A DNA stretch of 64,000 nt from Parcubacteria group bacterium (GTDB lineage Bacteria; Patescibacteriota; Minisyncoccia; Moranbacterales; UBA2206): assembly GCA_041659505.1 (NCBI GenBank), contig JBAZYF010000001.1:35654-99653 (forward strand). The letters run 5' to 3'. Below, in pieces: positions 4,772 through 62,753 of this stretch; position 1 is the stretch's first letter; each line of letters begins with the position of its first letter. The translations under genes and the position numbers were made by a program. A model generated the notes under the pieces. The model was not told the DNA's origin and searched no databases. It saw nothing but the letters and a program-made list of their open reading frames with translations.

Positions 4772-6346
4772 CTAAAGATCATTTCCTGAATAGGACAGAT
4801 TGAAACTCTTGTTGATGAGAGGAAAATCCGGCACAATATTGCCTTTTCCGGCGTGACCTACGACCGTCCAGTTAATAAAAGATGGATCGCGCACATCCAC
4901 GCGCGTAATTTGACCATCTGAGTCCGTCACGACAAAATAGACAATCTCGCCCCTCCAGCCTTCACTGATCCCGAGGGCAAAACTGTTTTTTCGCAAAATC
5001 GCCGTTTTGGGATTTACCAGCTCCCCTGGCGCTTCGGCCAATTTTTCCAAAGCTTGTTTTAGAATTTCAAATGAAACGAAAACTTCCTTTATCCGCACAT
5101 GAAGCCGTGCAAAAACATCGCCCTCTTTTTCCAGCGCAATGCCAAAATTCAATTCCGGATAAGCGGCATGGGGATATTCGATCCTGGCATCATGGGCAAT
5201 GCCCAGTGCTCTGCCGGCTACGCCGACAACTCCATGATCAAGCGCTAATTGGCGATCGAGCCGACCAGTACTTTGCAAACGGTTGAGGAGCGTACTACTG
5301 TCATCGGAAATCTCAATCACTTCCGCAAAATCTTTTTTTATTTTCAAAAGTTTTTCTTGTAATTGTTTTCCCGCTTCCGCAGAAATATCTTTCGTTACCC
5401 CGCCAATCACATTCACTCCGCGCAAAAATCGACTGCCGGTCAAACTTTCATTCAGTTGCATGATCATTTCGCGCAGACGACCACCATTGCTTCCGCCAAA
5501 ACTGAATCCGGTATCGAGCATAATAAACCCGATGTCATTAAAATGATTTGCCAGCCGTTCCAATTCAGAAAAAATCACTCGCAGATATTTTGCTCGCGCG
5601 GAGACTTTAGTTTCGGCCAGATTTTCAATCGCCTGGCAAAAAGCCAAACTGTGCGTGAAAGAAGTGTCTCCGGAAACTCTTTCTGACAGGCGCACTTTTT
5701 CCGCCAAGGGCAATGTTTCAAAAAGTTTTTCAATTCCCTTATGCTTATAGCCCAGTTTCGGCTCCAAAAGAACCACTTCCTCTCCCACCACGCTAAAACG
5801 AAAATGTCCCGGTTCGATAATTCCGGCATGCACCGGACCGACGGGAATTTCATAGATTCCCTCCCCCTTTACTTTCAAAAATTCATAAGTTCCAGTCGCT
5901 TGGGCAGGACGTTCTTGCCAATTAAAATCTTTCCGTAAAGGAAAAACTCCCGCCGGCCAATTTTCATGCAAAAGCATCCCTCGCGCATTAGGATGGCCGA
6001 GTGGTTCAAGACCAAAAAAACTTTTTATCCGCCGTTCATAGCCGGACGCTTCATGAATTGCTTTGGTGATCGAAGGAAAGCCTTTGCCGTCTTGGATGGT
6101 AATGTAGGGCGTCAAAAAAACATTTTCCCCTGGCACGCCAAAAACATAGAAGATGCGAAAACCGATTCCCGCTTTTCTCTCATCCGTCGCCGTGATAGTT
6201 TTCAGTTGCAACTTGTGGTCAAAATACAACTCATTACAAACAGTCAAAAGTTCCGCGGTCGGGACAGCATAAGTCAAAACATTGCCATCCTGCTTGACGG
6301 AAAAACTTTTGGGAATATATTTTTCTTGGATTTCGCTTTGATTCAT
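4772..6346 (-). CDS. HycE/HyfG-like large subunit of a group-4 [NiFe]-hydrogenase (NuoC-NuoD fusion) lacking all four Ni-Fe ligand cysteines
   Basis: Aligns by eye to E. coli HycE: the NuoC-like N-terminal domain, the GPVHAGIIEPGHFRF motif, and RVSGDTSFTHS in place of RVCGICGFAHS. The C-terminus FNLSYSGNDL replaces LDPCYSCTDR. Confidence 0.8.
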   Translation of the reverse strand: MNQSEIQEKYIPKSFSVKQDGNVLTYAVPTAELLTVCNELYFDHKLQLKTITATDERKAGIGFRIFYVFGVPGENVFLTPYITIQDGKGFPSITKAIHEASGYERRIKSFFGLEPLGHPNARGMLLHENWPAGVFPLRKDFNWQERPAQATGTYEFLKVKGEGIYEIPVGPVHAGIIEPGHFRFSVVGEEVVLLEPKLGYKHKGIEKLFETLPLAEKVRLSERVSGDTSFTHSLAFCQAIENLAETKVSARAKYLRVIFSELERLANHFNDIGFIMLDTGFSFGGSNGGRLREMIMQLNESLTGSRFLRGVNVIGGVTKDISAEAGKQLQEKLLKIKKDFAEVIEISDDSSTLLNRLQSTGRLDRQLALDHGVVGVAGRALGIAHDARIEYPHAAYPELNFGIALEKEGDVFARLHVRIKEVFVSFEILKQALEKLAEAPGELVNPKTAILRKNSFALGISEGWRGEIVYFVVTDSDGQITRVDVRDPSFINWTVVGHAGKGNIVPDFPLINKSFNLSYSGNDL

Positions 6347-6356
6347 ATTAGTTAGG

Positions 6357-6531
6357 AGTTACACGTTTCCCCTCACAGCCGTATTTTCTAAAAAAATAAC
6401 TCGAACGCCCTTTTTTTCTTTTCAAATTTTTCCCTCTATCAACGGCAACCAGTGGAAAATTTTGAAGAAAAAAGGCATTCTCAGGCACGTTTTTTTAGAA
6501 AATACGGCTGACTCGGGCAAACACGTAAGTC
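6357..6531. mobile_element. MITE-like inverted-repeat element, family 1, copy A
   Basis: About 175 bp with ~40 bp imperfect terminal inverted repeats (...ACACGTTTCCCCTCACAGCCGTATTTTCTAAAAAAA / TTTTTTTAGAAAATACGGCTGACTCGGGCAAACACGTAAGT). The whole element matches 26684..26857 in inverted orientation. Confidence 0.75.
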
Positions 6532-6534
6532 ATA

Positions 6535-7980
6535 TTAGTAGACTAAACTGGCACTAGTTATTAGGGAATTTATTGTTGCAGGGATAAAAATACTCAAATA
6601 AACTAGAAGAACCACCAAGATGAGCACCGGAAAAATTGTCCAAACGCCAGACTCGCCAACCGGAACATTCTCTTCATTTTCCCCAAAAATCATCGCGACC
6701 ACATGGCGGAGGAAACCGACAAAGATCAATGCCAGCGCCAAGAGCGCAATAATTGTGACGGCAGGATGACTGCTGATCCCAGCGGACAGAATCGAAAATT
6801 CGGTGACAAAAATTCCAAACGGTGGCATACCAGTGATGGCCAAAAAGCCAATAAGAAACAAAATGCTCGTAACCGGCAAGACTTTGAGGACGCCTTTCAC
6901 TTTAGCAATTTTAGTGGAGCTATATTTCAAAAAGATATTGCCCGCTGACAAAAACAAAATTGATTTGGCCAAGGAGTGATAGATCATATGCAAGATTGCC
7001 GCGAAAATTCCCACACCACCAAATCCAAACCCTAGTGCCATCACGCCCATATGTTCGATGCTGGAATAGGCCAAGAGTCGTTTGTAATTTTTTTGGATGA
7101 AAATGATCGCAGCCGCGACAATAATTGAAATGATACCGAAAAAAATGAGCATCTGGGAAGAAAAATTTGCTCCCACAGCAAGATCCACAATCACTTTGAA
7201 CCGCAAGATTGCCAGAAATGCCACATTGAGGAGCACGCCAGAAAGCAAACTGCTAATTGGCACCGGTGCCTTGCTGTGGGCATCGGGTAGCCAAGTATGC
7301 ATCGGCACAAACCCGACCTTCGTTCCATAGCCAATCAGGATAAAGATAAAAGCAATCTTGGCAACAAACGGATCAAGACCAGAGGCGTTGACTAGTAGCG
7401 CATGCCAATTGACCAGGCCGTGATTTCCCGCCGCGAAAGAAGGGTAGAGAAAAATCAAAGTGCCAAAAAAAGCTAGTAAAAGTCCGACCGAGTTAACAAT
7501 CAAATATTTCCAAGCCGCTTCCATCGCCGATGGCTTGTTATAAAAACTGATCAAAAATGCCGTGGAAAGAGTAGTCGCTTCGATCATTACCCACATCAGG
7601 ATCGGATTGGTCGTGCTGATGGCAAAAAACATCGCAAGCAGAAATAGGTGCAAAAGGATGAAATATTCTCGCACCCGATGAAATCCGATAATGCCTTTTT
7701 TCACCTCCACTTGCAAATAGCCCGTAGAATACCAAGAAGCTACAAATCCGATGATCGCCACCAAAAGAAGCAGGATTGCTCCTAATGGATCGATGGAAAG
7801 ATAGGGTGTCCAAGCATAACTACCCTTTTGCGCCACGACCGACACCACAATCAGCGCTGAAATAAGCTCAATGGAAGAAGCCAAAATTGCAATCGTATTT
7901 AGCGGTTGAATCTTTTTCCTGACCAAAAAAGACAAGCCGGAAGCAATGAAAGGAATAAAGATGATAAGAAATAGAGCCAT
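6535..7980 (-). CDS. HyfF/HyfD/NuoN-like antiporter-type membrane subunit
   Basis: 481 aa polytopic protein with the NuoL/M/N/MrpD signature (GFVPMHTWLPDAHSKAPVPISSLLSGVLLNVAFLAILRF). Confidence 0.75.
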   Translation of the reverse strand: MALFLIIFIPFIASGLSFLVRKKIQPLNTIAILASSIELISALIVVSVVAQKGSYAWTPYLSIDPLGAILLLLVAIIGFVASWYSTGYLQVEVKKGIIGFHRVREYFILLHLFLLAMFFAISTTNPILMWVMIEATTLSTAFLISFYNKPSAMEAAWKYLIVNSVGLLLAFFGTLIFLYPSFAAGNHGLVNWHALLVNASGLDPFVAKIAFIFILIGYGTKVGFVPMHTWLPDAHSKAPVPISSLLSGVLLNVAFLAILRFKVIVDLAVGANFSSQMLIFFGIISIIVAAAIIFIQKNYKRLLAYSSIEHMGVMALGFGFGGVGIFAAILHMIYHSLAKSILFLSAGNIFLKYSSTKIAKVKGVLKVLPVTSILFLIGFLAITGMPPFGIFVTEFSILSAGISSHPAVTIIALLALALIFVGFLRHVVAMIFGENEENVPVGESGVWTIFPVLILVVLLVYLSIFIPATINSLITSASLVY

Positions 7981-7984
7981 AAAA

Positions 7985-8644
7985 TTAATCTTCTTTTAGG
8001 TGAGACATCTTAGTTACATCAAGCGTCTCCATCTGCTTATAAATCATCGAGGTGAAGGTTGCCGAAATCATTATCCAAACTGCGATATCAAAAATTATGC
8101 CCAATTCCAATCCAGGTGTCTGTTCCAGTCCGGACATTATGGCAAAAGAAACAATGCCATTTTCCAAGGACAGCACTCCAATCGCCTGAGACAGGGCACC
8201 TTTGCGATTAATCAAAAGGAAAATTGATCCCAGAATTGTCGCGATGGAAAGTAGCATCGCATTAGAATTCTCTGGAGCGATTACAGTCAAGGGAGCAAAA
8301 AAACGCGAATAAGTCACTGCTGTTATCACCGCTAGAATAATCAAAGTCAAAGGACCATTGAGATAGGTGCTAGCGGAAAATTTTATATGATTTTTCTTGA
8401 TCAGCTTTCTGAAAAAATGAGGAGCAATGATTACTTTAACAACAAACATGAGAATCGCCACCAAAAAAATCAGCCAAGAGAAATCAGCCAGCGCGGCGCT
8501 AATGAAAAAAACAAAAATAACTAAAGACTGAACGAGGTATAGCGCCACGACAGAAGTACTTTTCTTGGCCAGATGCATAAAAATGACTGAGGCAAAAATC
8601 AGAATTTCTAAGAAAAATAGAATTTGTGGTGTAAGAGGAAACAT
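7985..8644 (-). CDS. HyfE-like small membrane subunit
   Basis: 219 aa, about 7 TM helices. The size and its position between the HycD-like and HyfF-like genes match hydrogenase-4 component E. Assignment rests mainly on synteny. Confidence 0.5.
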   Translation of the reverse strand: MFPLTPQILFFLEILIFASVIFMHLAKKSTSVVALYLVQSLVIFVFFISAALADFSWLIFLVAILMFVVKVIIAPHFFRKLIKKNHIKFSASTYLNGPLTLIILAVITAVTYSRFFAPLTVIAPENSNAMLLSIATILGSIFLLINRKGALSQAIGVLSLENGIVSFAIMSGLEQTPGLELGIIFDIAVWIMISATFTSMIYKQMETLDVTKMSHLKED

Positions 8645-8648
8645 AAGT

Positions 8649-9575
8649 TTAAGCGATTAAAATAATAGCGATTACTCCCAGGATGAATGAGGTGAACAGG
8701 AGATCAGGCAGGCGGAAAAATCTAAACTTAGCGATACTTGATTCCAGCGTTGCCACAAAAAGACAAAGCAGCAGGGTCTTGATCAAAAACAACATTAGTG
8801 CGATAAAAAGAGCTGCTCCAGAAAAAGACGTCGCCAATCCCCAAGGGAAAAATAGATTAGCACCAAGGGAAAGAAAAATCAGAAATTTATTCGCCGCTGC
8901 CCACTCAATAAGCGCCAAACGTTTGCCGGAATATTCCAAAATCATCGCCTCATGGATCATGGTCAGTTCCAGATGCGTCGAGGGATTGTCGAAAGGAAAA
9001 CGCGCCGTCTCGGCGAGCATCGCAATGACATAGGCCAAAAAAGCCAGCGCCACAGGTGCAAAAAGACCCAGTGGTAGCTGCGAAACAGCGCTCGTGATTG
9101 AAAATAGATTGGTCGAATGAGCCACCAATGCCAGTGCCAACAGTGAAAAAATCAACCCGCCTTCGGTGAGCGCCGCTACGGTCATTTCCCGACTTGATCC
9201 AAAACCACCAAATGCTCCACCCGTATCCATCCCGGCCAGGGCGAGAAAAAAAGTGCTCAGCGCGATCAAATACACGATCGTCAGAAAATCACCAATGATG
9301 TTTCCTGGGAACAGTCCGGTAAAAAATGGGATACTCGCCCCGACCACGAGCGTCACAGCAAAAATCAGATAAGGCGCAAAACGAAAGATCCAAGAAGCAT
9401 CCTCGCTGATGATTTCATCTTTGTGGAATAACTTCCAGAGATCTTGATAGGGCTGGAAAACACTTGCGCCGAGCCTGTTTTGAAAACGCGCTTTTATCTT
9501 TCTGGTCACGCCGATAAAAAGCGGCGAGAGCGCTGGAACTAAGATTAATTGAATTGCAATAAATAGCACTGACAT
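8649..9575 (-). CDS. HycD/HyfC/NuoH-like membrane subunit
   Basis: 308 aa. The N-terminus (MSVLFIAIQLILVPALSPLFIGVTRKIKARFQNRLG...YQDLWKLF...DASWIFRFAPY) aligns closely with E. coli HycD. A PFDNPSTHLELTMIHEAMILEYSG segment matches the NuoH loop motif. Confidence 0.8.
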   Translation of the reverse strand: MSVLFIAIQLILVPALSPLFIGVTRKIKARFQNRLGASVFQPYQDLWKLFHKDEIISEDASWIFRFAPYLIFAVTLVVGASIPFFTGLFPGNIIGDFLTIVYLIALSTFFLALAGMDTGGAFGGFGSSREMTVAALTEGGLIFSLLALALVAHSTNLFSITSAVSQLPLGLFAPVALAFLAYVIAMLAETARFPFDNPSTHLELTMIHEAMILEYSGKRLALIEWAAANKFLIFLSLGANLFFPWGLATSFSGAALFIALMLFLIKTLLLCLFVATLESSIAKFRFFRLPDLLFTSFILGVIAIILIA

Positions 9576-9581
9576 AAATTT

Positions 9582-18854: not shown

Positions 18855-19034
18855 TGTCATTCCCGCGAAGGCGGGAATCCAGGTTCCACTTGCCCTAAAC
18901 CCTGGAAAATCGAATTATAAATCCCCTAACTTCTTATTATCAACCAACAAATCCCGTTTTTCTTTTCTTATCACCTGAGGTGCCTGGATTCCCGCCGGAG
19001 TTTATCCTCGTGTAGACGGGGGCGGGAATGACAC
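18855..19034. mobile_element. MITE-like element, family 2, copy 1, between atpF and atpH
   Basis: TGTCATTCCCGCGAAGGCGGGAATCCAGGTTCCAC ... CACCTGAGGTGCCTGGATTCCCGCC ... GGGCGGGAATGACAC. A near-identical architecture occurs at 34207..34366. Confidence 0.7.
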
Positions 19035-19040
19035 AGGAGC

Positions 19041-19529
19041 TTACCTAATTGCTTTTTCGATTAACTCTTTATCTTTTTCCTTATCCAATTTCTCCCCAAT
19101 AATCTTCTCCGTCGCTAAAACTACCAAATTTGCAATCTCACCTTTCACTTCCGAGAGCATCTTATTTTTTTCTTGCTCGATCTGACTCTTGGCGCCAACT
19201 AGCAGTTTCTCGCCCTGGTTTCTCGCTTCAAGCACGATACTCATCGAATTAGCCTTAGCCTGATCTTCGGCAGTTTTAATAATTTCTTGCGCTTCTTTTT
19301 TTGCCTTAGCCATGACTGCTTTTTCTTTTTCAACAATCTCTTCCAGCTTCTTTCCGGCAGCATCAGCGTCTTCGAGACCTTTTTCAATCTTGTTCGTCCG
19401 ACTGTTGAGCGTCTTCAAAACCGGCTTGTAGGCGAATTTGTAAAGCACCCAAAGGACGATGGCAAAATTGACCATCTGCGCCACCAAGAGGTTGACCTCG
19501 ATATGAAATGTTTTGATGAGTTCATCCAT
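19041..19529 (-). CDS. atpF: Fo ATP synthase b subunit
   Basis: 162 aa. A single N-terminal TM helix followed by a long charged coiled coil. Confidence 0.8.
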   Translation of the reverse strand: MDELIKTFHIEVNLLVAQMVNFAIVLWVLYKFAYKPVLKTLNSRTNKIEKGLEDADAAGKKLEEIVEKEKAVMAKAKKEAQEIIKTAEDQAKANSMSIVLEARNQGEKLLVGAKSQIEQEKNKMLSEVKGEIANLVVLATEKIIGEKLDKEKDKELIEKAIR

Positions 19530-20831: not shown

Positions 20832-20849
20832 AATTATTCATTACTTATA

Positions 20850-21006
20850 TCCCCTTCTCCATTAGGGAGAAGGTGCCCGAAGGGCGGATGAGGGAGAAGT
20901 CTTTCAATAACCACCCTCAATACTCATAGCACTTTTTTTATATCAACACCCTTTTCCCTCACCTGTCACGAGTACGTGACATCCTCTCCCTAAGGGCGAG
21001 GAGGAT
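20850..21006. mobile_element. MITE-like element, family 3, copy 1
   Basis: Left arm CCCCTTCTCCATTAGGGAGAAGGTGCCCGAAGGGCGGATGAGGGAGAAG. Right arm CCCTTTTCCCTCACCTGTCACGAGTACGTGACATCCTCTCCCTAAGGGCGAGGAGG. The arms are mutually inverted. A homolog lies at 52680..52837. Confidence 0.65.
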
Positions 21007-21934: not shown

Positions 21935-22768
21935 CTATAAATCAAAAAACCGCTCCGCCGTTTCTGATGTAATTTTTGCCACTTCCTCAAAATCAATATT
22001 TTTCACCTCCGCAATTTTTTGCGCCACATATTTCACGAAACTTGGCTCGTTCCTTTTTCCCCGCATCGGCACTGGTGCTAAGTATGGACAATCGGTTTCG
22101 AGCATAATTTTCTCAAGCGGGATTTTTTTAATCACCTCAAAAATTTCCGCGCCAGGTTTGTTGTAAGTAATATTGCCAGCAAAAGAAATTAGCATATTGG
22201 TTTTTTCTAAAACTTTTTTTGCAAATTCCAACCGTCCACCAAAACTATGCCAGACAAACTTCAAATCGGGAAATTTAGAAATGATTGCAAAAACATCTTC
22301 GTAGGCATCATCCGCTTCGCGATATGGACTTGGCGCAACAGGCCTCGATCCGCGACAATGCAAAATGACCGGCAATTTCAATTCTTTTGCAAATTCCAAC
22401 TGCAAAGCAAAACCTTTTTTCTGCAATTCTTTTTGCGCGTCAGTGACCAAGCTCCCATCGGGAATAAAATAGTCCAGACCGATTTCCCCGATCGCCACGA
22501 TTTCTTTGCTCGCAGATAGTGCTTTAAATTCTGGAATCTTGTCAAAACTTTTCTCAACATATTCCATAAAATAATGCGGGTGAAGACCGATCGAACAAAA
22601 AATATTGGCATATTTCTCAGCCAAAACCACACTGCGCTGGCTACTCCCCAACCCCGCGCCGATGTTGATGATTTTTTCCACGCCACCCTCAAATGCCCGC
22701 GCGATCACCTCGTCGCGGTCAGCATCGAATTGTTTGTCATCAATGTGAGCGTGAGTTTCAATTAGCAT
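21935..22768 (-). CDS. tatD: TatD-family metal-dependent DNase/hydrolase
   Basis: MLIETHAHIDD...GLHPH...GEIGLDY...HCR...H.F.G...ETD. The TatD His/Asp motif set. Confidence 0.8.
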   Translation of the reverse strand: MLIETHAHIDDKQFDADRDEVIARAFEGGVEKIINIGAGLGSSQRSVVLAEKYANIFCSIGLHPHYFMEYVEKSFDKIPEFKALSASKEIVAIGEIGLDYFIPDGSLVTDAQKELQKKGFALQLEFAKELKLPVILHCRGSRPVAPSPYREADDAYEDVFAIISKFPDLKFVWHSFGGRLEFAKKVLEKTNMLISFAGNITYNKPGAEIFEVIKKIPLEKIMLETDCPYLAPVPMRGKRNEPSFVKYVAQKIAEVKNIDFEEVAKITSETAERFFDL

Positions 22769-22794
22769 ATGAAAGTGTCATAAAAAAATATTGT

Positions 22795-22822
22795 CATTCC
22801 CGCGAAGGCGGGAATGACACAA
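22795..22822 (-). terminator. Solo family-2 palindrome acting as a metG terminator
   Basis: TGTCATTCCCGCGAAGGCGGGAATGACA is a 12-bp stem with a GAAG loop. On the minus strand it is followed by ATATTTTTTTATG. Confidence 0.55.
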
Positions 22823-22827
22823 GCAAG

Positions 22828-24255
22828 CTACTTAATTCTTTGAAATAAAACTTCATCCAGTTTTTTTGTTTCCAGTGCTTTTTTAATTTTCTCGGAAGTT
22901 CCAGGCATGAAAGGTGAAAGTAATTCTGAAATTAGCGAAATGTCTGTTAGTAATTTTTCCATCACTTCTCCAAATTTAACCTCGTCAGTTTTCGCCAGTT
23001 CCCATGGCTTATTATCTCCAATAAATTTATTATTATCCGCAATAATTTTCCAAATATCTGATAGCGCCTGATCAAATTCCATCTTGTTTAGAAAATTGGA
23101 AATTGAGTCATTCGGTCCGCCAACTGGCGGATTGAAATTTGGAATTTGAAATTTGAAATTCTCAGCAAGCTTAATCACTCGCGATAAAAGATTCCCCAAT
23201 CCATTCGCCAAATCAGCATTATATCTCTCAATTAATTTTTCCCAAGTAATATCAAAATCTTCACCAAAATTCGCCCCGGCTAAAAGCAGATAACGCGTTG
23301 CGTCTGTGCCGAACTTTTCTACCATTTCATAGGGTGAAATAACATTGCCAAGGGATTTGCTCATTTTTTGTCCATCGACCGTAATAAAACCATTCACAAA
23401 AACTTGCTTAGAATTAGAAAGTTTTGCTGACATGAGCATTGCCTGCCACATCGCTGATTGCTGGCGCAAATTATCCTTTCCGCAGACTTGCACTCCCGGC
23501 CAAAATTTTTCAAAATTTTCCAAGTTATTCGGCCAGCCCAGGGTTGAGATATAATTTACCAGTGCATCAAACCAAACATACATCACATGCTCATCATCAC
23601 CCGGAACCGGCACGCCCCAGGCCATCTTGCTTTTGAGTCGCGATATGCTAAAATCCTCCAGTCCCCTTTCCACAAAGCTCCGCACCTCATTCATCCTCTT
23701 GGCCGGCACGACAAAATCCGGATTATTCTTATATAATTCCAATAGCTTTTCTTGATAGGCAGAAAAGCGGAAAAAATAATTCTCTTCTTCGATGGTCTCA
23801 ATTTCCATATTGGGATGATCCGGACATTTCCCATCGATCAGTTCCGAATCAGTTTTTTCCAGCTCACACCCGACGCAATATTTTACCTTATAATTTTTCT
23901 TATATATATCGCCGTTCTTTTCACAAAGCTTCCAAAATTCCTGTACGGCTTTGATATGCTCCGCGTCTGTTGTTCGGATAAAGTTATCATAGCTCAAATT
24001 GAGCGAGGCTTTCAGTTTATCAAATTCCGGCACAACGCTATCACAATAACTTTGCGCGTCCATCCCCAGCTCAATTGCTTTTTGATAGATTTTTTGCCCA
24101 TGTTCATCTGTTCCAGTATTAAAAAACACTTCCTCACCTTGTTCGCGATGAAAGCGCGCCAGCACGTCCGCTTCAACAATTTCCTTGGCAAAGCCAATGT
24201 GTGGCTTAGCATTGACATAGGGCAACGTGGTTGTGATGTAAAATTTGTTTTTCAT
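22828..24255 (-). CDS. metG: Methionyl-tRNA synthetase, short form without a C-terminal domain
   Basis: LPYVNAKPHIGFA...ADV..RFHR..GEEVFF.TGTDEHGQKI aligns to the MetRS HIGH region. CxxC...C.DHP zinc knuckle. YVWFDALVNYIS. KMSKSLGN. Confidence 0.85.
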   Translation of the reverse strand: MKNKFYITTTLPYVNAKPHIGFAKEIVEADVLARFHREQGEEVFFNTGTDEHGQKIYQKAIELGMDAQSYCDSVVPEFDKLKASLNLSYDNFIRTTDAEHIKAVQEFWKLCEKNGDIYKKNYKVKYCVGCELEKTDSELIDGKCPDHPNMEIETIEEENYFFRFSAYQEKLLELYKNNPDFVVPAKRMNEVRSFVERGLEDFSISRLKSKMAWGVPVPGDDEHVMYVWFDALVNYISTLGWPNNLENFEKFWPGVQVCGKDNLRQQSAMWQAMLMSAKLSNSKQVFVNGFITVDGQKMSKSLGNVISPYEMVEKFGTDATRYLLLAGANFGEDFDITWEKLIERYNADLANGLGNLLSRVIKLAENFKFQIPNFNPPVGGPNDSISNFLNKMEFDQALSDIWKIIADNNKFIGDNKPWELAKTDEVKFGEVMEKLLTDISLISELLSPFMPGTSEKIKKALETKKLDEVLFQRIK

Positions 24256-26668: not shown

Positions 26669-26683
26669 AAAATCAGTATTAGA

Positions 26684-26857
26684 ACTTACGCACTTGACCG
26701 AGTCAGCCGTGTTTTCTTAAAAAATCCTGTCTGAGAATGCCTTTTTTCTTCAAAATTTTCCATTGGCTGCCTTTGATAGAGGGAAAATTTTGAAAAGAAA
26801 AAAGAGCGTTCGAGTTATTTTTTTAGAAAACACGGCTGCGAGGCAAAACACGTATAT
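26684..26857. mobile_element. MITE-like element, family 1, copy B, inverted relative to copy A
   Basis: Its reverse complement aligns base-for-base with 6357..6531 over its whole length, roughly 85-90% identical by eye, including the CAGCCGTRTTTTCTAAAAAA terminal repeats. Confidence 0.75.
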
Positions 26858-26865
26858 CCTAAATA

Positions 26866-28134
26866 TTAAATACTCAATAATTTTTGCAACTTTTCACTAT
26901 TCTTGTGCGGTCCGATAATTGCTAAATTTAATTTTTTATTTTGAAAAATATCTTTTGCCACTTGCAAAATATCTTCCGGTGTCACTGAATCGACCCGGCG
27001 GAAAATTTCTTCCCGCTTCAAAATCTCACGCCGCGAAAGTTCCTGCCCGACAAAAAACATTGCGACCTCGTCCGACGCTTCCATCCCCATTACCATCTTG
27101 CCTTTGATGTAATCCTTGGCTTTTTGTAATTCCTTTTCCGGCACTTTTTCCGTCGCAATCTTTTTGTATTCAGCTAAAATTGTTTCTAGCGCTAGCGTCA
27201 GATTTTTATGTTCCACGCCCGCTTGTGTCGCCAGATATCCACACTCCTCAAATGATTCAGTGTTAGTGCGGACATAATAGGCTAAACCTTTTTTCTCTCG
27301 CACTTCCATAAACAGCCGACTAGACATATTCCCGCCGAGAATAATCGAAAGCAAGGAAAGTGCGAAACGCCTTTCACTATATTGGTCATAGGCGCGCGCA
27401 CCCAAAATCAATTGCGTCTGATCAGTTTTTTTAAATTTAATCTTCACCGCCGGAACTTTTTGCGTTTCTTTCACTTTTTTGAGTTGTGGTTTTTTGCCGT
27501 CAGACATTTCGCGGAAATATTTTTTCACCCGCTCCACCAGTTTCTTTTCATCAAACTTTCCCGCCACACAAATCACAGTGTCATTAGAGAGATAGAACCG
27601 TTTCATATATTTCAAAAAATCCTTGCGCTTGAAACTATTGATCGTTTTTTTGTACCCAATAATATCCCGCCCCAGATCAGTTCCCGGATAGAGCAAATTT
27701 TCAAACACATCGCCAACGTTGCGCATCGGCATATCCTCATACATATTCAATTCCTGGATGATCGTTCCGCGCTCTTTTTCCAGTTCCACTTCTTCGATTT
27801 TGGAATGCAGATACATATCCGACACAACATCCAGCGCTGTGTCAATGTGCTTGGCGTCAACTTTGACATAATAGCCAGTCGAATCTTTGGAAGTGAAAGC
27901 ATTGAATTCTCCGCCAATCGCATCCAATTCTTCCGCAATTGAAAGTGTCGTTGGCCTTTTTTCCGTTCCCTTAAAAAACATATGCTCGATAAAATGAGAA
28001 AGCCCAGCTTCCTTTTCCGCTTCATAGCGACTGCCGACACCCACTATCACCACAACCGTCACAGTTTGCGTCTCAAGCATCGGCACGGTCAAAATTCTCA
28101 GGCCGTTTTTTAGATTGGTTTTTTTATAATTCAT
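26866..28134 (-). CDS. M16-family zinc peptidase (insulinase-like)
   Basis: The inverted zincin motif HFIEHMFFKGT (HxxEH) and a downstream Glu. Confidence 0.8.
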   Translation of the reverse strand: MNYKKTNLKNGLRILTVPMLETQTVTVVVIVGVGSRYEAEKEAGLSHFIEHMFFKGTEKRPTTLSIAEELDAIGGEFNAFTSKDSTGYYVKVDAKHIDTALDVVSDMYLHSKIEEVELEKERGTIIQELNMYEDMPMRNVGDVFENLLYPGTDLGRDIIGYKKTINSFKRKDFLKYMKRFYLSNDTVICVAGKFDEKKLVERVKKYFREMSDGKKPQLKKVKETQKVPAVKIKFKKTDQTQLILGARAYDQYSERRFALSLLSIILGGNMSSRLFMEVREKKGLAYYVRTNTESFEECGYLATQAGVEHKNLTLALETILAEYKKIATEKVPEKELQKAKDYIKGKMVMGMEASDEVAMFFVGQELSRREILKREEIFRRVDSVTPEDILQVAKDIFQNKKLNLAIIGPHKNSEKLQKLLSI

Positions 28135-32610: not shown

Positions 32611-33216
32611 CTACCCCAAAAACATTTTTCGATATCTTGCCATCATTTTTTTATCAGAAAGGGTTCGATATATTTTGAGTGATATTTCTCCACTTCTAAA
32701 ATTTTCGTCCGCTGTTAATTTTATGAATTCATCAAATGTATAAGATACTAGTTCTATTTTTTCTCCACTATCCAAATTTTGCTTTTGTATTTTTTTGCAA
32801 CCCTTGGCAATAAAGACATAGTAAGCAAACTCTATCTTGCTTATGGGTTGTTCGGCATGCCAAAGATTCAGTTCCTCTGCCACTAGTCCAGATTCTTCCA
32901 ATAGCTCACGCTTAGCTGCTTTTAAAATAGATTCTCCCTTGTCAACCCGACCGCCGATACAACTCAGATAGGTTTTGCGGCCAGGCTGTTTTTGCTTGGC
33001 AAAAAATAATTTTCCGTCAATGACTGGTATGACATGCACAGTATCCACCCTCTTTATTTTTTCAAAAATCTTGTAACTCCCATCAAACATCTTCTGTTGC
33101 CACTGGTACACGTCAAAAACTACTCCCGCAAAAACCTTCTTGGCATTTTTTGGTATCGGCTGGTTAGATTTTGGTCTCGCTACCTGCATAGAACTAATAT
33201 TATAAACTTTCAGCAA
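32611..33216 (-). CDS. NUDIX hydrolase (ADP-ribose pyrophosphatase-like)
   Basis: Nudix box GGRVDKGESILKAAKRELLEESGL. Overlaps the HD-domain gene by 17 bp. Confidence 0.75.
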   Translation of the reverse strand: MLKVYNISSMQVARPKSNQPIPKNAKKVFAGVVFDVYQWQQKMFDGSYKIFEKIKRVDTVHVIPVIDGKLFFAKQKQPGRKTYLSCIGGRVDKGESILKAAKRELLEESGLVAEELNLWHAEQPISKIEFAYYVFIAKGCKKIQKQNLDSGEKIELVSYTFDEFIKLTADENFRSGEISLKIYRTLSDKKMMARYRKMFLG

Positions 33217-34213
33217 ACTTCAAAAAATATTCCTTCGGGCGCATTTCCGCCTCAACCACCTTTTTCCAATCAAGATTGACTTCTGAAACACGCACCACCT
33301 TTCCCTCATTATAACATATTGGGTCAATCACGCGCGACTTGCAAAAAACTTGTGCGTCATAATTATTGGGATTATTCGCGTAACCCACTCGATTATTCAT
33401 TCGTTCCCAAAGTTTTTTTAGTATCTTATCTTTCTCCAAGAACTGGTTAATTTTTCCCAGCACTTCCACATCAGTCAGATATAAATCTTCTTTCGAAATA
33501 TATTTTTTTTCTATGGCACACTTCAAATAATCACCAGTCGTGCGAAACATTACTGCCGATTCGATCCCAGAATAAAAATATTTATTGGCATGAAAAAATA
33601 AATCAGAAAAATTTTGCGCAGAGCTATAATCCCCAAAAATCCACCGTCCATCTTTCACAATTAAACTAGCCAAAATGCTAGGGATTTTCTTGGCATATGC
33701 TGGCGCATATCTGTGGAAATGCCAAATGTCTCGCAGGGAATAATCAATCCGGTCAGCACAAGTATCGGGTAGACTGTTCTCTTTCAAAGGAAAATTTTTG
33801 TCGTTCAAAATATAGTCCAAATCAAAGCCATGCCTGGAAAGAATGGCCGGAATTTCAGAATTACCCACGAAGGAATTGAAAATATTATCCTGGTGCGTTT
33901 GCTCCTTTTGCGATCCTTCCGCAAAAACATAATCGGCGGAATGAGAAAAAGCACTGTGCGAAACATCATGGATAAGACCGGCAATCTGCTCAGAAAGTTC
34001 TGCACCAAATTGGCGCAAAAGCAGATAGGCGCCGACGGAATGCTCAAAGCGAAAATAAGTTGCTCCAGGAAAAAAAGGCTCCATATATCCATGTTGATCA
34101 ATGTCTTTAAGTCGCTGCATCGCGGGACAGGCCATCAACTCCAGAATTACCGGCTCAGTGATTTCATTTTCTCCGTAAATTGGATCAATGTATTGCATAA
34201 TACTATGTGTCAT
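33200..34213 (-). CDS. HD-domain metal-dependent phosphohydrolase
   Basis: H...HD motif (EHSVGAY...GLIHDVSHSAFSH). The start codon lies inside the family 2 element. Confidence 0.7.
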   Translation of the reverse strand: MTHSIMQYIDPIYGENEITEPVILELMACPAMQRLKDIDQHGYMEPFFPGATYFRFEHSVGAYLLLRQFGAELSEQIAGLIHDVSHSAFSHSADYVFAEGSQKEQTHQDNIFNSFVGNSEIPAILSRHGFDLDYILNDKNFPLKENSLPDTCADRIDYSLRDIWHFHRYAPAYAKKIPSILASLIVKDGRWIFGDYSSAQNFSDLFFHANKYFYSGIESAVMFRTTGDYLKCAIEKKYISKEDLYLTDVEVLGKINQFLEKDKILKKLWERMNNRVGYANNPNNYDAQVFCKSRVIDPICYNEGKVVRVSEVNLDWKKVVEAEMRPKEYFLKFAESL

Positions 34214-34366
34214 TCCCGCGAAGGCGGGAATCCAGGTTCCACTATTTATAAACCCTAAAAAATCGAATTATAAATTTTCTAACTTCTATTTTCTAATCAT
34301 TAAATCTCGTTTTTCTTTTTTTATAACCTGAGGTGCCTGGATCCCCGCCTCCGCGGGGATGACACG
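34207..34366. mobile_element. MITE-like element, family 2, copy 2
   Basis: TGTGTCATTCCCGCGAAGGCGGGAATCCAGGTTCCACT ... CCTGAGGTGCCTGGATCCCCGCCTCCGCGGGGATGACAC. Covers the HD-gene start codon and the last ~27 codons of the U32 gene. The U32 C-terminus reads ...RVIPAEAGIQAPQVIKK from the repeat. Confidence 0.7.
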
Positions 34367-35644
34367 TTGGATTACTTTCCTCACCAAACTCCCGCTTTCT
34401 AATTTCCGATCAAACTCGAAATAATATTCCTTATTGTGTCCACCGTCTGCCACCAGTACTGCGTTTTTATTGTTATCTAAAATCTTTTTTATCTTGAGTT
34501 TAATGTTTTCTTTGGGCGTGATAGCTTCTAAGCTGTCCTCGATTGAGATATGATTATGCACCCGCAAAATATTCAGTTTGTCTTCCAGTGATTTCACCTC
34601 ACCCACAAACTGAAATTTAGCCGGATTATTCTTATTTTCAAAATTATGCTCCGGCTCGCGTCCCAACAGAAAACCGGTCGAATATCCACGATGCACCAAA
34701 TTATCCAACTCCGTTTTTTGTTTTTTTATAATTGCTTTAATTTCCTTTTCTGGCGCATCATTTTCCAAAGCATCCAGCACCGCGCGATAAGCGCGTGTCA
34801 CAATCGCCAAATAGTAGGCGCTCTTGGCTCGCCCTTCAATCTTGAACGACGCCACACCCGCCTCTCGAAGTTCCGAGAGGTGTGCCAGCAAATTCATATC
34901 ATAACTATTGAAAAAATAGGTCCCGTGCGTGTCCTCCTCCACATCCATCGCATAACGCTTCTGATCATCAATCACATTCATCTCAAAATAGTCATCTCCA
35001 AAATTTTGTTTTTTGATTTTTGATTTTTGATTTTTGGAATGATATGCCCACCGGCACGGCTGAGAACAATCTCCCAGGTTGGCACTGCGATCTGTCATCC
35101 ATTTTGACAAAATGCAACGGCCGGAATAACTCATACACATCGCGCCATGGACAAAATATTCCAGCTCAATATTTTTCGATTGCTGACTAATCTCTTTGAT
35201 TTCTTTGAGCGTCACTTCCCGCGCCAGAATAATTCTTTTCACTCCTTGCGCGCGCCAAAATTCCACCGCTGCCGAGTTGGTCGCGTTAGCCTGCGTGGAA
35301 AGATGAATCTCACACTCCGGCCAATATTTCTGGATGAAAAGAATGATCCCCGGGTCGCTCGCAATGATCGCATCCACTTTCAGTTTTTTTAAGTATTGGA
35401 TATGCTCTTTGATTTTTGCCAAATGCTGATTATGCGCATAAATGTTGAGCGTCACATAAATTTTCTTCTTTCGTTTGTGCACATATTCCACCGCCTCAGC
35501 CAAATCTTCTTTGGAAAACCGATTGATCCGCACCCGCAAAGAAAAATCCGGCACGCCGCAATATACAGCGTCCGCGCCAAAAGCCAGGGCATATTTAAGT
35601 TTCTCCAGATCACCTGCTGGAGCAAGTAGCTCGATTTTTTTCAT
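34286..35644 (-). CDS. Peptidase U32 family protein (RlhA/YhbU-like)
   Basis: IELLAPAGDLEKLKYALAFGADAVYCG and FKIEGR motifs. The C-terminal ~27 residues are encoded by the repeat element. Confidence 0.75.
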   Translation of the reverse strand: MKKIELLAPAGDLEKLKYALAFGADAVYCGVPDFSLRVRINRFSKEDLAEAVEYVHKRKKKIYVTLNIYAHNQHLAKIKEHIQYLKKLKVDAIIASDPGIILFIQKYWPECEIHLSTQANATNSAAVEFWRAQGVKRIILAREVTLKEIKEISQQSKNIELEYFVHGAMCMSYSGRCILSKWMTDRSANLGDCSQPCRWAYHSKNQKSKIKKQNFGDDYFEMNVIDDQKRYAMDVEEDTHGTYFFNSYDMNLLAHLSELREAGVASFKIEGRAKSAYYLAIVTRAYRAVLDALENDAPEKEIKAIIKKQKTELDNLVHRGYSTGFLLGREPEHNFENKNNPAKFQFVGEVKSLEDKLNILRVHNHISIEDSLEAITPKENIKLKIKKILDNNKNAVLVADGGHNKEYYFEFDRKLESGSLVRKVIQRVIPAEAGIQAPQVIKKEKRDLMIRK

Positions 35645-44275: not shown

Positions 44276-44361
44276 GGAGAGGTGGCTGAGTGGCTGAAAG
44301 CACCACACTGCTAACGTGGCAAGGGGTAAAACCCTTCGAGGGTTCAAATCCCTCCCTCTCC
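44276..44361 (+). tRNA. tRNA-Ser (anticodon GCT)
   Basis: GGAGAGG acceptor, long variable arm, anticodon loop cTGCTaa, T-arm GGTTCAAATCC, 3' acceptor CCTCTCC-G. Confidence 0.85.
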
Positions 44362-44365
44362 GCCT

Positions 44366-44640
44366 TCGCCACGCCGTAGCTTCAGCGAAGGCGGGCTTCG
44401 CCAAAGCTACGGCATGGCTACGGCGTGACAAGTCCGCTCAGGACTCAGCGAAGGCGGGCTTCGCCAAAGCTACGGCATGGCTACGGCGTGACAAGTCCGC
44501 TCAGGACTCAGCGAAGGCGGGCTACGGCATGGCTACGGCGTGACAAGTCCGCTCAGGACTCAGCGAAGGCGAGCTTCGCCAAAGCTACAGCGTAACTACG
44601 GCGTGACGCAGTCCGCAAGAAACCATGCGAAAGCGGGATT
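44366..44640. repeat. GC-rich tandem repeat array (about 63-bp unit, about 4 copies) after tRNA-Ser(GCT)
   Basis: The unit CAGCGAAGGCGGGCTTCGCCAAAGCTACGGCATGGCTACGGCGTGACAAGTCCGCTCAGGACT is repeated head-to-tail. One copy lacks TTCGCCAAAG. Confidence 0.75.
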
Positions 44641-44673
44641 TACTACGCTACAATATTCTCAAAATAAAAAGCT

Positions 44674-44904
44674 ATGTATTATGTCTATAGTCTAAAATGC
44701 AAGGATGGATATTATGTCGGTTGCACAGATAATCTTAAAGATAGAATAATTAGACATCAAAACGGCTACGTACCAGCAACTAAAAATAGACTGCCCTTGA
44801 AATTGGATTTTTATTTTGCAATGAACGATAAATATAAAGCATTTGAATTTGAAAAATACCTAAAATCAGGATCCGGACGTGCTTTTTCTGTGAAGCATTT
44901 TTAA
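44674..44904 (+). CDS. Small GIY-YIG nuclease-domain protein
   Basis: 76 aa. YYVYSLKCKDGYYVGCTDNLKDRIIRHQNG matches the GIY-(10-11)-YIG ...R...H..G core. Sits between the two tRNA-Ser genes. Confidence 0.65.
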   Translation: MYYVYSLKCKDGYYVGCTDNLKDRIIRHQNGYVPATKNRLPLKLDFYFAMNDKYKAFEFEKYLKSGSGRAFSVKHF

Positions 44905-44913
44905 AAAACAATG

Positions 44914-45000
44914 GGAGAGATGGCCGAGTGGTTTAAGGCAACAGTCTTGAAAACTGTCGTACTGTTAAAGGTACCGTGAGTTCGAATCTCACTCTCTCCG
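44914..45000 (+). tRNA. tRNA-Ser (anticodon TGA)
   Basis: GGAGAGA acceptor, anticodon loop cTTGAaa, long variable arm, T-arm GAGTTCGAATCTCAC, 3' acceptor TCTCTCC-G. Confidence 0.85.
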
Positions 45001-45176
45001 CCTTCGCCACGCTGAAGCGTGGCTTCGGCGTGACGCAGTCCGCCAGAAGCCATGCGAAAGCGGGATTCGCTACGCCGAAGCGTGGCTACGGCGTGACGCA
45101 GTCCGCCGTGGATACGCGTAGGCGAGCTTCGCCACGCCAGAACAAACATTCGGCGTGACGCAGTCCGCCAGAAGAA
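45000..45176. repeat. GC-rich repeat array after tRNA-Ser(TGA), related to 44366..44640
   Basis: CGGCGTGACGCAGTCCGCC occurs three times. It shares GTGACGCAGTCCGC(C/A)AGAA(G/A)CCATGCGAAAGCGGGATT with the end of the first array. Confidence 0.65.
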
Positions 45177-45194
45177 TAGTTAAAATAAATAATT

Positions 45195-45267
45195 GCGCTT
45201 ATAGCTCAGTGGATAGAGCGTCTGGTTGCGGTCCAGAAGGTCGCAGGTTCGATTCCTGCTAAGCGCA
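45195..45267 (+). tRNA. tRNA-Arg (anticodon reads GCG)
   Basis: GCGCTTA acceptor, D-arm GCTCAGTGGATAGAGC, anticodon stem TCTGG/CCAGA with loop tTGCGgt, T-arm GCAGGTTCGATTCCTGC, 3' acceptor TAAGCGC-A. Confidence 0.7.
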
Positions 45268-52674: not shown

Positions 52675-52679
52675 TTTAG

Positions 52680-52837
52680 CTCCCCTTCGCCCTTAGGGAG
52701 AAGGTGGCCGAAGGCCGGATGAGGGAAAGGGCGTTAGATAAAATTATTACTTTCCTACACAGAACATTTTTATTTTTTAGTATCACCCTTGCCCTCACCT
52801 GTCCTTCGGACATCCTCTCCCGAGGGGAGAAGAGGAT
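52680..52837. mobile_element. MITE-like element, family 3, copy 2
   Basis: CTCCCCTTCGCCCTTAGGGAGAAGGTGGCCGAAGGCCGGATGAGGGAAAGGG ... CCCTTGCCCTCACCTGTCCTTCGGACATCCTCTCCCGAGGGGAGAAGAGG. The arms are mutually inverted and homologous to 20850..21006. Confidence 0.65.
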
Positions 52838-60554: not shown

Positions 60555-61238
60555 TTAATGGATCCGATCATAATCGTTCAAATTTCGCATTTCCACAAAT
60601 GTTTGCAGTTCGATATTATCTGGAGCCCGATTAGGATCAATATTTATCTTGAGATGGATTTTCATAAGCCGCACATCTGCCACATTAGCTGGAGTTACCA
60701 AAGGAACCTGCGTTGAGCCACCAGCATAATTCTTGTCATAATAGTAAAAAATGGGCTCTGCGCTAGTATTGACAATTCTTCTGGCAAGCGTAAGAATTTG
60801 CTGATCAGCGCTTGGATATGATTTGGGCATAGTTACTGTTGGATCAGTCACGCCCATTAAAATGTCCGTATTGCTTTTGTAAATGTGAATCCGCTCTGTT
60901 ACGCCATCACGATCATAGTCAGAATAAGCGACTAAATCATTATCGTCGGCGAAATAAATAGGATACGCACCATTATCCGACTGCCTAATACTCCGAAGAT
61001 AATTCACTATTGTATTCACTCCCTGAGAAACAGCCATCGAGGACTGCCCCATTTCTAGTGTATAGGAATTATTTTTCCAAGCATTGACGAAAAGCAAAGA
61101 GAATCCCTCAATTCCGATAGCAAAAATCGCAATAGCCACCAAAGTCTCCACTAGGGTTAAACCTTGCCTGCCAGCGGTCCTTCTGCCAGCATAATAAGCA
61201 AGCAGGCTTTTTTGTTTTTTTATCTTTTGATTCATCAT
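60555..61238 (-). CDS. Prepilin-type (type IV pilin-like) protein
   Basis: RQG|LTLVETLVAIAIFAIGI is a class III signal with Glu at +5. Confidence 0.65.
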   Translation of the reverse strand: MMNQKIKKQKSLLAYYAGRRTAGRQGLTLVETLVAIAIFAIGIEGFSLLFVNAWKNNSYTLEMGQSSMAVSQGVNTIVNYLRSIRQSDNGAYPIYFADDNDLVAYSDYDRDGVTERIHIYKSNTDILMGVTDPTVTMPKSYPSADQQILTLARRIVNTSAEPIFYYYDKNYAGGSTQVPLVTPANVADVRLMKIHLKINIDPNRAPDNIELQTFVEMRNLNDYDRIH

Positions 61239-62641: not shown

Positions 62642-62650
62642 TTTGCCTTC

Positions 62651-62753
62651 AATTTCTAATTTCTAAACAATTTCTAATTTATTAATGACTGAATTTTTAA
62701 ATTAAGTCATTTTTAAAATTGTTTGAAAATTGTAAATTGTAAATTGAAAATTT
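62651..62753. repeat. About 110-bp AT-rich leader repeat, copy 2, between pilC and the large pilin gene
   Basis: Homologous to 17621..17732 over its whole length. Confidence 0.55.

Follow-up and report, generated by a model that had tools for sequence, protein, structure and literature searches.

NTS/dRS3-ended repeats in a Moranbacteria genome and their probable relation to Ssn nuclease cassettes

The 94-amino-acid GIY-YIG nuclease SsnA binds and cuts the Neisseria Transformation Sequence (NTS), CGTCATTCCCGCGMAVGCGGGAATCYRG, of which the dRS3 repeat is a part, and does so on single-stranded DNA only (Nat Commun 2025, PMC11893778). The GTC ahead of the NTS palindrome and the C behind it are critical for Ssn cutting and binding, the C after the palindrome being the most important position for binding; the known role of Ssn is to restrict transformation, an insertion sequence (IS)-like origin is merely speculated on, and the word Patescibacteria is absent from the main text (PMC11893778). 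Neisseria intergenic mosaic elements (NIMEs) were stated in 2007 not to occur outside Neisseria (PMC1797815). The dRS3/NIME repeats have been known for more than two decades without a mechanism of spread, and Ssn was described in 2025 only as transformation restriction. Here we describe a short repeat, present as two full copies (A and B) and one solo palindrome in a 64,000-nt stretch of contig JBAZYF010000001.1 (the window), from a Candidatus Moranbacteria genome (Patescibacteria, or candidate phyla radiation, CPR) whose best U32 protein matches are labelled Candidatus Moranbacteria/Moraniibacteriota or Parcubacteria group. Judged by sequence, the element ends on both sides in the published NTS/dRS3 hairpin on which Ssn nucleases act, in a phylum where it was not reported before. 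Loci from other contigs, genomes and metagenomes are given as L numbers.

A mobile repeat with NTS/dRS3 hairpin ends

Copies A and B are 85% identical over 142 nt and lie within 1-3 nt of where an earlier note on this DNA had placed them (18855..19034 and 34207..34366). The motif GTCATTCCCGCGAAGGCGGGAAT has three exact matches in the window and one with three mismatches (0 expected, 100 shuffles), and the chance expectation for two full copies plus one 26-nt solo palindrome is likewise 0. A third full copy lies ~7 kb beyond the window in the same genome (L271:17484-17674). The family unit comprises two inverted NTS hairpins around a conserved, A+T-rich non-coding core of ~100 nt, ~155 nt in all. 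Predicted RNA folds are strong (-67 kcal/mol for copy A and -72 kcal/mol for copy B); Rfam, searched with the whole window at the gathering threshold, returned tRNAs only, and the element matches no RNA family. Its parts in the window are these:

18855..19033, minus strand: element copy A, in the atpF/atpH spacer; core GTCAT...ATGAC at 18856-19032 (177 nt), plus conserved flanking T and A
18855..18882, plus strand: NTS hairpin at the atpH-facing end of copy A; 27/28 to the published 28-nt NTS motif; DNA hairpin -8.9 kcal/mol, z -3.6
18990..19032, minus strand: second NTS of copy A, at the atpF-facing end; loop broken by a 25-nt insert
18995..19019, plus strand: the 25-nt insert CCGGAGTTTATCCTCGTGTAGACGG within that NTS loop; recurs in other copies, at either end
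34208..34364, minus strand: element copy B, in the spacer between the U32 peptidase and HD-domain genes; core 34209-34363 (155 nt)
34208..34235, plus strand: NTS hairpin at the HD-facing end of copy B; 27/28 to the published motif
34341..34363, minus strand: NTS hairpin of copy B at the end within U32; GGGGAT/ATCCCC variant with compensating stem changes

The element is mobile. Locus L031, from another Moraniibacteriota metagenome-assembled genome (MAG), is syntenic with the window over 16.5-24.3 kb, and there only TTTT stands between the atpF stop and the atpH ATG; the junction has no element, and its spacer is 4 nt, against ~200 nt in the window. The same junction is occupied in L139 and L140, in the same orientation and with different spacers. 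A pattern scan of metagenomes, with a pattern that included a -10 box, added 31 stretches, all of them ~155-nt elements and 13 from the same sample as the window. Clustered by their flanks, the copies from related genomes and metagenomes fall into 25 distinct sites, every one occupied by a single unit, with no arrays. The empty atpF-atpH junction and these 25 sites bear out the earlier note's suggestion of a mobile repeat resembling a miniature inverted-repeat transposable element (MITE). A 17-mer scan of genome contigs gave mostly chance matches among the matches listed, which did not include the window's own genome, and the family-specific pattern was absent from IMG/VR contigs.

No target-site duplication was found in 32 copies. 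Their flanks share a T at -1 (32/32), a G at -2 (28/32) and an A at +1 (32/32), and are T-rich upstream but otherwise unrelated. Among co-directional sites, orientation relative to the neighbouring genes is biased 16:1 (p = 2.7e-4), a bias to be expected equally of strand-specific insertion into single-stranded DNA and of selection where, as here, nearly all genes share one strand. At the 24 sites other than U32-HD, the stop codon of the upstream gene usually lies 8-13 nt ahead of the element, and at 21 of 24 sites a co-oriented gene follows the end towards which the promoter-like site points, often within 7-41 nt.

We scored a sequence as NTS if it had at most one mismatch to the published motif, the tolerance set by the Ssn authors. 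The hairpins at 18855-18882 and 34208-34235 have one mismatch each (0 expected by chance) and also fit the authors' degenerate SRM pattern (0.11 expected by chance); the remaining two ends, with the GGGGAT stem variant and the loop insert, miss the strict NTS pattern. The dRS3 core ATTCCC-N8-GGGAAT stands at the element ends with its oriented flanks GTC...C, and the hairpins fold as DNA at -8.9 to -14.7 kcal/mol. In an alignment of 20 copies, pairing within each terminal hairpin reaches 99.4%, with compensatory change at four pairs (C:G, A:T, T:A), a covariation score reached by none of 500 shuffles. Pairing from end to end showed no compensatory change in the same 20 copies, and one position was mismatched in 11 of them. 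Covariation within each hairpin but not between the ends points to selection on each hairpin, not on matching ends. Neither the GTC nor the C behind the palindrome varies at either end of the aligned copies, an invariance partly fixed by the metagenome search pattern at the right end and not at the left. The earlier note, sound in describing a MITE-like repeat, had missed the identity of these ends.

The 25-nt loop insert (CCGGAGTTTATCCTCGTGTAGACGG and variants) also occurs in L042, L100, L139, L149, L151, L162, L166, L167 and L271:17636-17660; the end that holds it can differ between orthologous copies and also within one genome. Two further kinds of NTS loop insert were seen, one in L149/L165 and one in L157/L162. 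The NTS hairpin loop seems to be a recurrent insertion target, or else loop inserts seem to spread through conversion.

The family consensus also contains an outward sigma-70-like sequence, TTGATA-18-TATAAT, facing the downstream gene. In the window it is represented as follows, in both cases as a consensus match only:

18914..18943, minus strand: promoter-like TTGATA-18-TATAAT in copy A, 11/12, towards atpH
34267..34295, minus strand: promoter-like TAGAAA-17-TATAAT in copy B, 10/12, towards the HD gene

A promoter-like site of at least 10/12 is present in 20 of 32 copies, with none in the opposite direction (the -10 box was in the search pattern). We infer from these matches that the element may have portable promoter activity.

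Ssn cassettes in related genomes

Units of NTS-GIY-YIG-NTS architecture occur in two Moraniibacteriota loci, L017:7092-7497 and L123:6821-7229 (Pfam PF01541, E 1e-14 and 3e-17), each with a single-domain GIY-YIG gene of 96-97 amino acids between inverted NTS; L017 belongs to the same MAG as the U32 orthologue P0003. A 209-nt element in L036 retains ~16 decayed ssn codons, and the subterminal part of the window family on the ssn-5' side resembles the ssn 5' untranslated region (z 5-6, some pairs). A Thiohalomonas MAG has two NTS-flanked units whose proteins share 67-69% identity with the putative Ssn-type proteins of Moranbacteria, which suggests that the NTS-ssn-NTS cassette was transferred between phyla.

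The NTS-ssn-NTS units of the Thiohalomonas denitrificans MAG, a gammaproteobacterium, lie at L093:2923-3559 and 5690-6360 and have NTS identical to those of Moraniibacteriota. Ssn-type homologues number >8000, many of them on very short contigs. NTS-ssn-NTS units also lie on predicted viral contigs in IMG/VR (L216:3389-3768 and L235:8601-8979), and at least 100 viral contigs contain the generic NTS; the Ssn relatives on predicted viral contigs are 55-62% identical. Viral contigs with NTS-ssn units may be vehicles, or may reflect prophage or host contamination. A PDB sequence search with the Ssn-like protein returned spurious WD40 matches only, and an NCBIfam search no informative family. The window was considered as a clean empty site for the L017 ssn unit and rejected as such, the spacer being too different. 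A different small GIY-YIG gene (102 amino acids, Pfam E 4e-18) lies in a tRNA array with repeated spacers at L145:11686-12449, ~180 nt downstream of an NTS-ended element of the window family.

On balance, we consider the element probably a non-autonomous, hairpin-dependent repeat related to Ssn cassettes, and we infer its mobilisation by Ssn. The hairpins would form in single-stranded DNA, where an Ssn-type nuclease acting in trans would recognise them and cut just 5' of GTCAT. The unit would then be copied or moved strand-specifically, without target duplication, and would land mostly in short spacers of co-directional genes, ~8-12 nt past a stop codon.

A further-reaching version, which we offer only tentatively, is that NTS-bounded units are true transposable elements driven by a small GIY-YIG single-strand nuclease, and that the window family is their MITE, equipped with a portable outward promoter. 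If so, they would form a hairpin-directed class of prokaryotic mobile DNA, strand-specific and without target duplication. This would explain the multiplication of dRS3/NTS in Neisseria, Wolbachia, Rickettsia and CPR bacteria, the shared 28-nt hairpin together with 67-69% identical Ssn in Patescibacteria and Gammaproteobacteria, and the same hairpin with 55-62% identical Ssn relatives on predicted viral contigs. With a homogeneous family, empty and filled sites, an ssn remnant, hairpin covariation, no duplication and a 16:1 bias, mobile Ssn cassettes with MITE derivatives become directly testable.

Several observations weigh against derivation from, and movement by, Ssn cassettes. The filled atpF-atpH junctions vary in spacer, so that none is a clean insertion into the empty site of L031, which could itself be a deletion. 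Similarity of the other subterminal part to the ssn units is not significant. Neither the window nor 10 kb of sequence adjoining its low end contains an ssn homologue, and the window's 656-kb contig is absent among the top 120 relatives of the L017 protein, so mobilisation in trans is only putative in this genome. None of the 31 metagenome copies contains an ssn open reading frame (ORF), and no direct coding parent was found among them. Published Ssn restricts transformation and is not known to transpose (PMC11893778). As for the promoter, the near-invariance of the -10 box is partly an ascertainment artefact, the box being in the search pattern; among the eight copies found otherwise it reads TATAAT in four, TATAAC in two and differently in two, and the L271 copy has no -10 box.

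Neighbouring genes and rival explanations

The genes adjoining the element copies are all on the minus strand:

19041..19529, minus strand: atpF (ATP synthase subunit b), upstream of copy A; Pfam; stop 19041-19043
18440..18841, minus strand: atpH (delta subunit, 133 amino acids), downstream of copy A; Pfam; ATG 18841-18839
34286..35644, minus strand: U32 peptidase ORF, 452 amino acids with its tail; Pfam
33200..34198, minus strand: HD-domain gene, 332 amino acids from its true start; Pfam; longest ORF 33200-34213
22828-24255, minus strand: metG; Pfam
21935-22768, minus strand: tatD; Pfam

Truncation of atpH by the element was considered and rejected: its Pfam match begins at model position 55, yet the element-free L031 has the same start. 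The ATP synthase operon tolerates ~200 nt of strongly folding DNA between genes that lie 4 nt apart in a relative.

At copy B, the element overlaps the U32 gene and the longest ORF of the HD gene:

34289-34369, minus strand: 27 non-native U32 C-terminal codons (QR + VIPAEAGIQAPQVIKKEKRDLMIRK), by comparison with orthologues
34211..34213, minus strand: in-frame ATG from the element terminus GGGAATGAC (...AATGAC), a spurious HD start
34196..34198, minus strand: true HD start codon (MQYIDPIYG...), 10 nt outside the element

The U32 protein of the window runs on as QRVIPAEAGIQAPQVIKKEKRDLMIRK past its native end, and the peptide VIPAEAGIQAPQVIK comes from this tail; 25 of the 27 tail codons lie within copy B and two (QR) come from the flank. 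Orthologues at 81-87% identity end in ...SLVRKVI, ...KVIE, ...KVIEKA or ...KIIEV, without the tail. The earlier note had claimed an element-encoded U32 C-terminus, and the orthologues uphold it: the comparison of U32 C-termini in relatives did not turn up the same tail without the repeat. The codon after ...GTAATC is a TAA stop in L004 and CAA in the window (34369-34367). In L133, whose U32 is 79% identical, the same insertion has identical flanks, and a C-to-T change gives TAG and a tail of just QRVIPAEAGI (10 residues, against 27 codons in the window), so tail length is not conserved. The native end ...KVI precedes the element and no U32 sequence lies beyond it, which excludes an in-frame internal insertion; a gene-element fusion of this kind occurs at one of the 25 sites. 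The tail most likely arose by loss of the stop codon and read-through into the element.

Copy B fills the entire U32-HD spacer, to 10 nt before the real HD start codon. The earlier note had placed the ATG of the HD gene inside the element; an in-frame ATG does stand there, five codons ahead of the real start, but the real start is outside. HD homologues begin ~M[QKE]Y.D.IYG (120/120 among the matches listed) and both NCBI and JGI call the gene at 332 amino acids, so the true start is the second ATG, 34198-34196. The element-terminal ATG is a recurrent annotation trap, sharing the reading frame of the downstream ORF at 4 of the 25 sites. Annotation errors from the element are of two kinds, a false start codon and repeat-encoded protein tails, and the element also breaks CPR metagenome assemblies. 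Arrival of the HD gene together with the element was considered and rejected: L134 has U32 with its native stop, a repeat of another family and then HD. The HD gene is absent at this place in L004, L007, L009 and L011.

The third occurrence in the window is a collapsed-looking one, between metG and tatD:

22792..22819, minus strand: solo palindrome TGTCATTCCCGCCTTCGCGGGAATGACA followed by ATATTTTTTT; -14.7 kcal/mol, z -7.4

The palindrome proper is perfect, 26 nt long, and lies 9 nt past the metG stop and 24 nt ahead of the tatD start, at 22793-22818; the earlier note had reported it, at 22795-22822. At metG-tatD, L031 has a full 165-nt copy with the same flanks (TTGT before GTCAT..., AAT after ...ATGAC), exactly at the position of the solo palindrome. 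The latter is made up of the outer halves of both ends, fused together, and is most simply read as a collapsed element. It would have formed by deletion between the ATYCCCGC direct repeats that are inherent to any palindromic end pair. It has no C after the palindrome, an absence that makes it probably inert as an Ssn substrate. It does match the intrinsic-terminator consensus (a 12-bp stem with 7 G-C pairs, then the ATATTTTTTT T-run) and outscores every other terminator-like site in its 5 kb, in keeping with the proposal of the earlier note that it may act as the metG terminator.

Conservation differs between the copies. Copy B is 94% identical between the window and L133, where flanking coding DNA is ~70-80% identical; the high-identity tract (~34173-34440, 88-95% identical) takes in the element and ~75 nt of the U32 3' end. 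The reverse holds for the atp copies, with 70-77% identity against 82-84% for the flanking genes. The high identity of the U32-HD copy would follow from selection on it, or from recent import by recombination of a tract centred on the element.

Such import belongs to a rival account that we think rather unlikely, namely spread without a nuclease, by recombination, gene conversion or transfer between genomes, with NTS hairpins as recombination or uptake-restriction signals, a role proposed for Neisseria NIME arrays, and solo hairpins as anchors. It would accommodate the full element in L031 exactly where the window has a solo hairpin, the 94% identity of the U32-HD copy against its flanks over the tract 34173-34440, and the 25-nt loop insert at differing ends of orthologous and same-genome copies; in Neisseria, moreover, dRS3/NIME arrays are linked to recombination and NTS modulates transformation (PMC1797815, PMC11893778). 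However, the 11-13 nt of homology offered by each half-hairpin is very short, the L031 atpF-atpH site is without any hairpin, the orientation bias comes about more easily through strand-specific insertion or selection, and the atp copies are less conserved than the genes around them.

Less probable again is that the copies are host regulatory modules under selection (terminators like repetitive extragenic palindromic (REP) sequences, mRNA stabilisers or portable promoters), whose mobility is ancient or irrelevant. The terminator-like solo hairpin and T-run, best in its 5 kb, the consensus TTGATA-18-TATAAT aimed at the downstream gene, the co-oriented gene after that end at 21 of 24 sites (often within 7-41 nt) and a U32-HD copy more conserved than its flanking genes would suit such modules, but the T-run is absent after full copies, the -35 region is variable, the conservation of the -10 box is inflated by the search pattern, and relatives have at the same junction no element (L031) or a different repeat family (L134). 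A classical MITE, an IS internal-deletion derivative moved by a DDE transposase that binds double-stranded terminal inverted repeats, has the expected ~28-nt inverted ends, small size, A+T-rich non-coding core, dispersed copies and empty and filled sites, but is equally improbable, given target-site duplication in 0/32 copies, ends that do not covary mutually while each keeps its own hairpin through compensatory changes, coding units with these ends that encode only a GIY-YIG nuclease and no transposase (in a search that was not exhaustive), and no transposase among the 40 window ORFs scanned against Pfam.

The window contains other repeats. The earlier note had listed 14884-15032 as a relative of the element; it proved to be a separate family, sharing only the TGTCATCC/GGATGACA termini and having no self-folding terminal hairpin. 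It is a real inverted-repeat element (TGTCATCCTGAGCG...CGCTCAGGATGACA) whose long nested hairpin folds as DNA at -38.8 kcal/mol, and it is found also in L017:5101-5209, L100:6068-6220 and L134:2826-2970; in L134 this family occupies the U32-HD spacer where the window holds copy B. The atp operon is also split by non-coding spacers of 750 nt between atpG and atpD (14360-15108) and 828 nt between atpH and atpA (17613-18439), which share repeat modules of 61 nt (92% identity), 72 nt and 31 nt; their tRNA-like repeats gave no tRNA with ARAGORN and no Rfam family. A palindromic repeat family, CCCCTTCTCCATTAGGGAGAAGGTGCCCGAAGGGCGGATGAGGGAGAAG, has copies at 20845-20910, just upstream of atpB, and 52676-52741 (82% identity). 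An inverted pair of ~190 nt, 82-90% complementary and 20 kb apart (6346-6537 and 26677-26868), is probably another repeat family. Beside tRNA genes (44276-45267), G+C-rich units of 52-63 nt (GCTACGGCATGGCTACGGCGTGAC...) are repeated in tandem arrays at 44343-44617 and 44991-45169. Two contigs of the same organism, L273 and L274, end at ~62648-62758, 40-100 nt away from the gene 61235-62641 and next to a repeat that recurs at 17631-17745; repeats fragment assemblies of this genome. Adjoining the atp operon, 4772-12214 is a complex-I-like or group-4-hydrogenase-like gene cluster with a fused 30-kDa + 49-kDa subunit, two Proton_antipo_M proteins, a NuoH-like and a NuoB-like protein, to our knowledge unusual for a CPR bacterium.

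Comparison with known systems

Among repeats that join protein-coding sequence, Rickettsia palindromic elements (RPEs) are, like the present element, palindromic. RPEs lie in-frame within genes, with host protein kept on both sides, whereas the window element gives only C-terminal read-through after a lost stop, at one of 25 sites and with a length that is not conserved. Correia elements of Neisseria act on expression through promoter or terminator functions, and their TA target is duplicated. Like the window element they are ~155-nt inverted-repeat units upstream of genes, and they affect expression, but their sequence is unrelated and their inverted repeat is 51 bp (PMC1797815). Target duplication, for its part, was not seen in the window family.

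Read as a non-autonomous repeat related to Ssn cassettes, the element resembles two hairpin-dependent systems more closely in its behaviour. IS200/IS605 'peel and paste' elements have distinct left and right hairpins on one strand, in contrast to the inverted ends here, which leave one forward site per strand. Both IS200/IS605 and the REP or bacterial interspersed mosaic elements (BIMEs) of REP-associated tyrosine transposases (RAYTs) share with the window family a dependence on hairpins, the lack of target duplication and the strand bias expected from single-stranded DNA; the enzyme linked to the present element is a GIY-YIG nuclease and not a Y1/HUH transposase. The Ssn authors themselves draw the analogy with REP/BIME and IS200/IS605 (PMC11893778).

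NIMEs are closer in build, with 20-bp ATTCCC-N8-GGGAAT inverted repeats around a repeat sequence (RS) of 50-150 bp, G+C-rich ends, an A+T-rich middle and an intergenic position (PMC1797815). Formally, the window element is an isolated dRS3-RS-dRS3 unit under the NIME definition. NIMEs, however, form long arrays with >100 RS families beside surface-protein genes (PMC1797815), whereas here a single family occurs as single units in housekeeping operons in a fixed orientation.

The closest match is to the NTS/SRM repeats, with the same oriented 28-nt hairpin (27/28) and the invariant GTC and C, and to the NTS-ssnA-NTS units, with which the sister genomes share a 96-97-amino-acid single-domain GIY-YIG gene and inverted NTS (PMC11893778). 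Where the Patescibacteria family departs from the NTS of Neisseria is in having two NTS that enclose a conserved non-coding core of 100 nt, as a dispersed and homogeneous unit.

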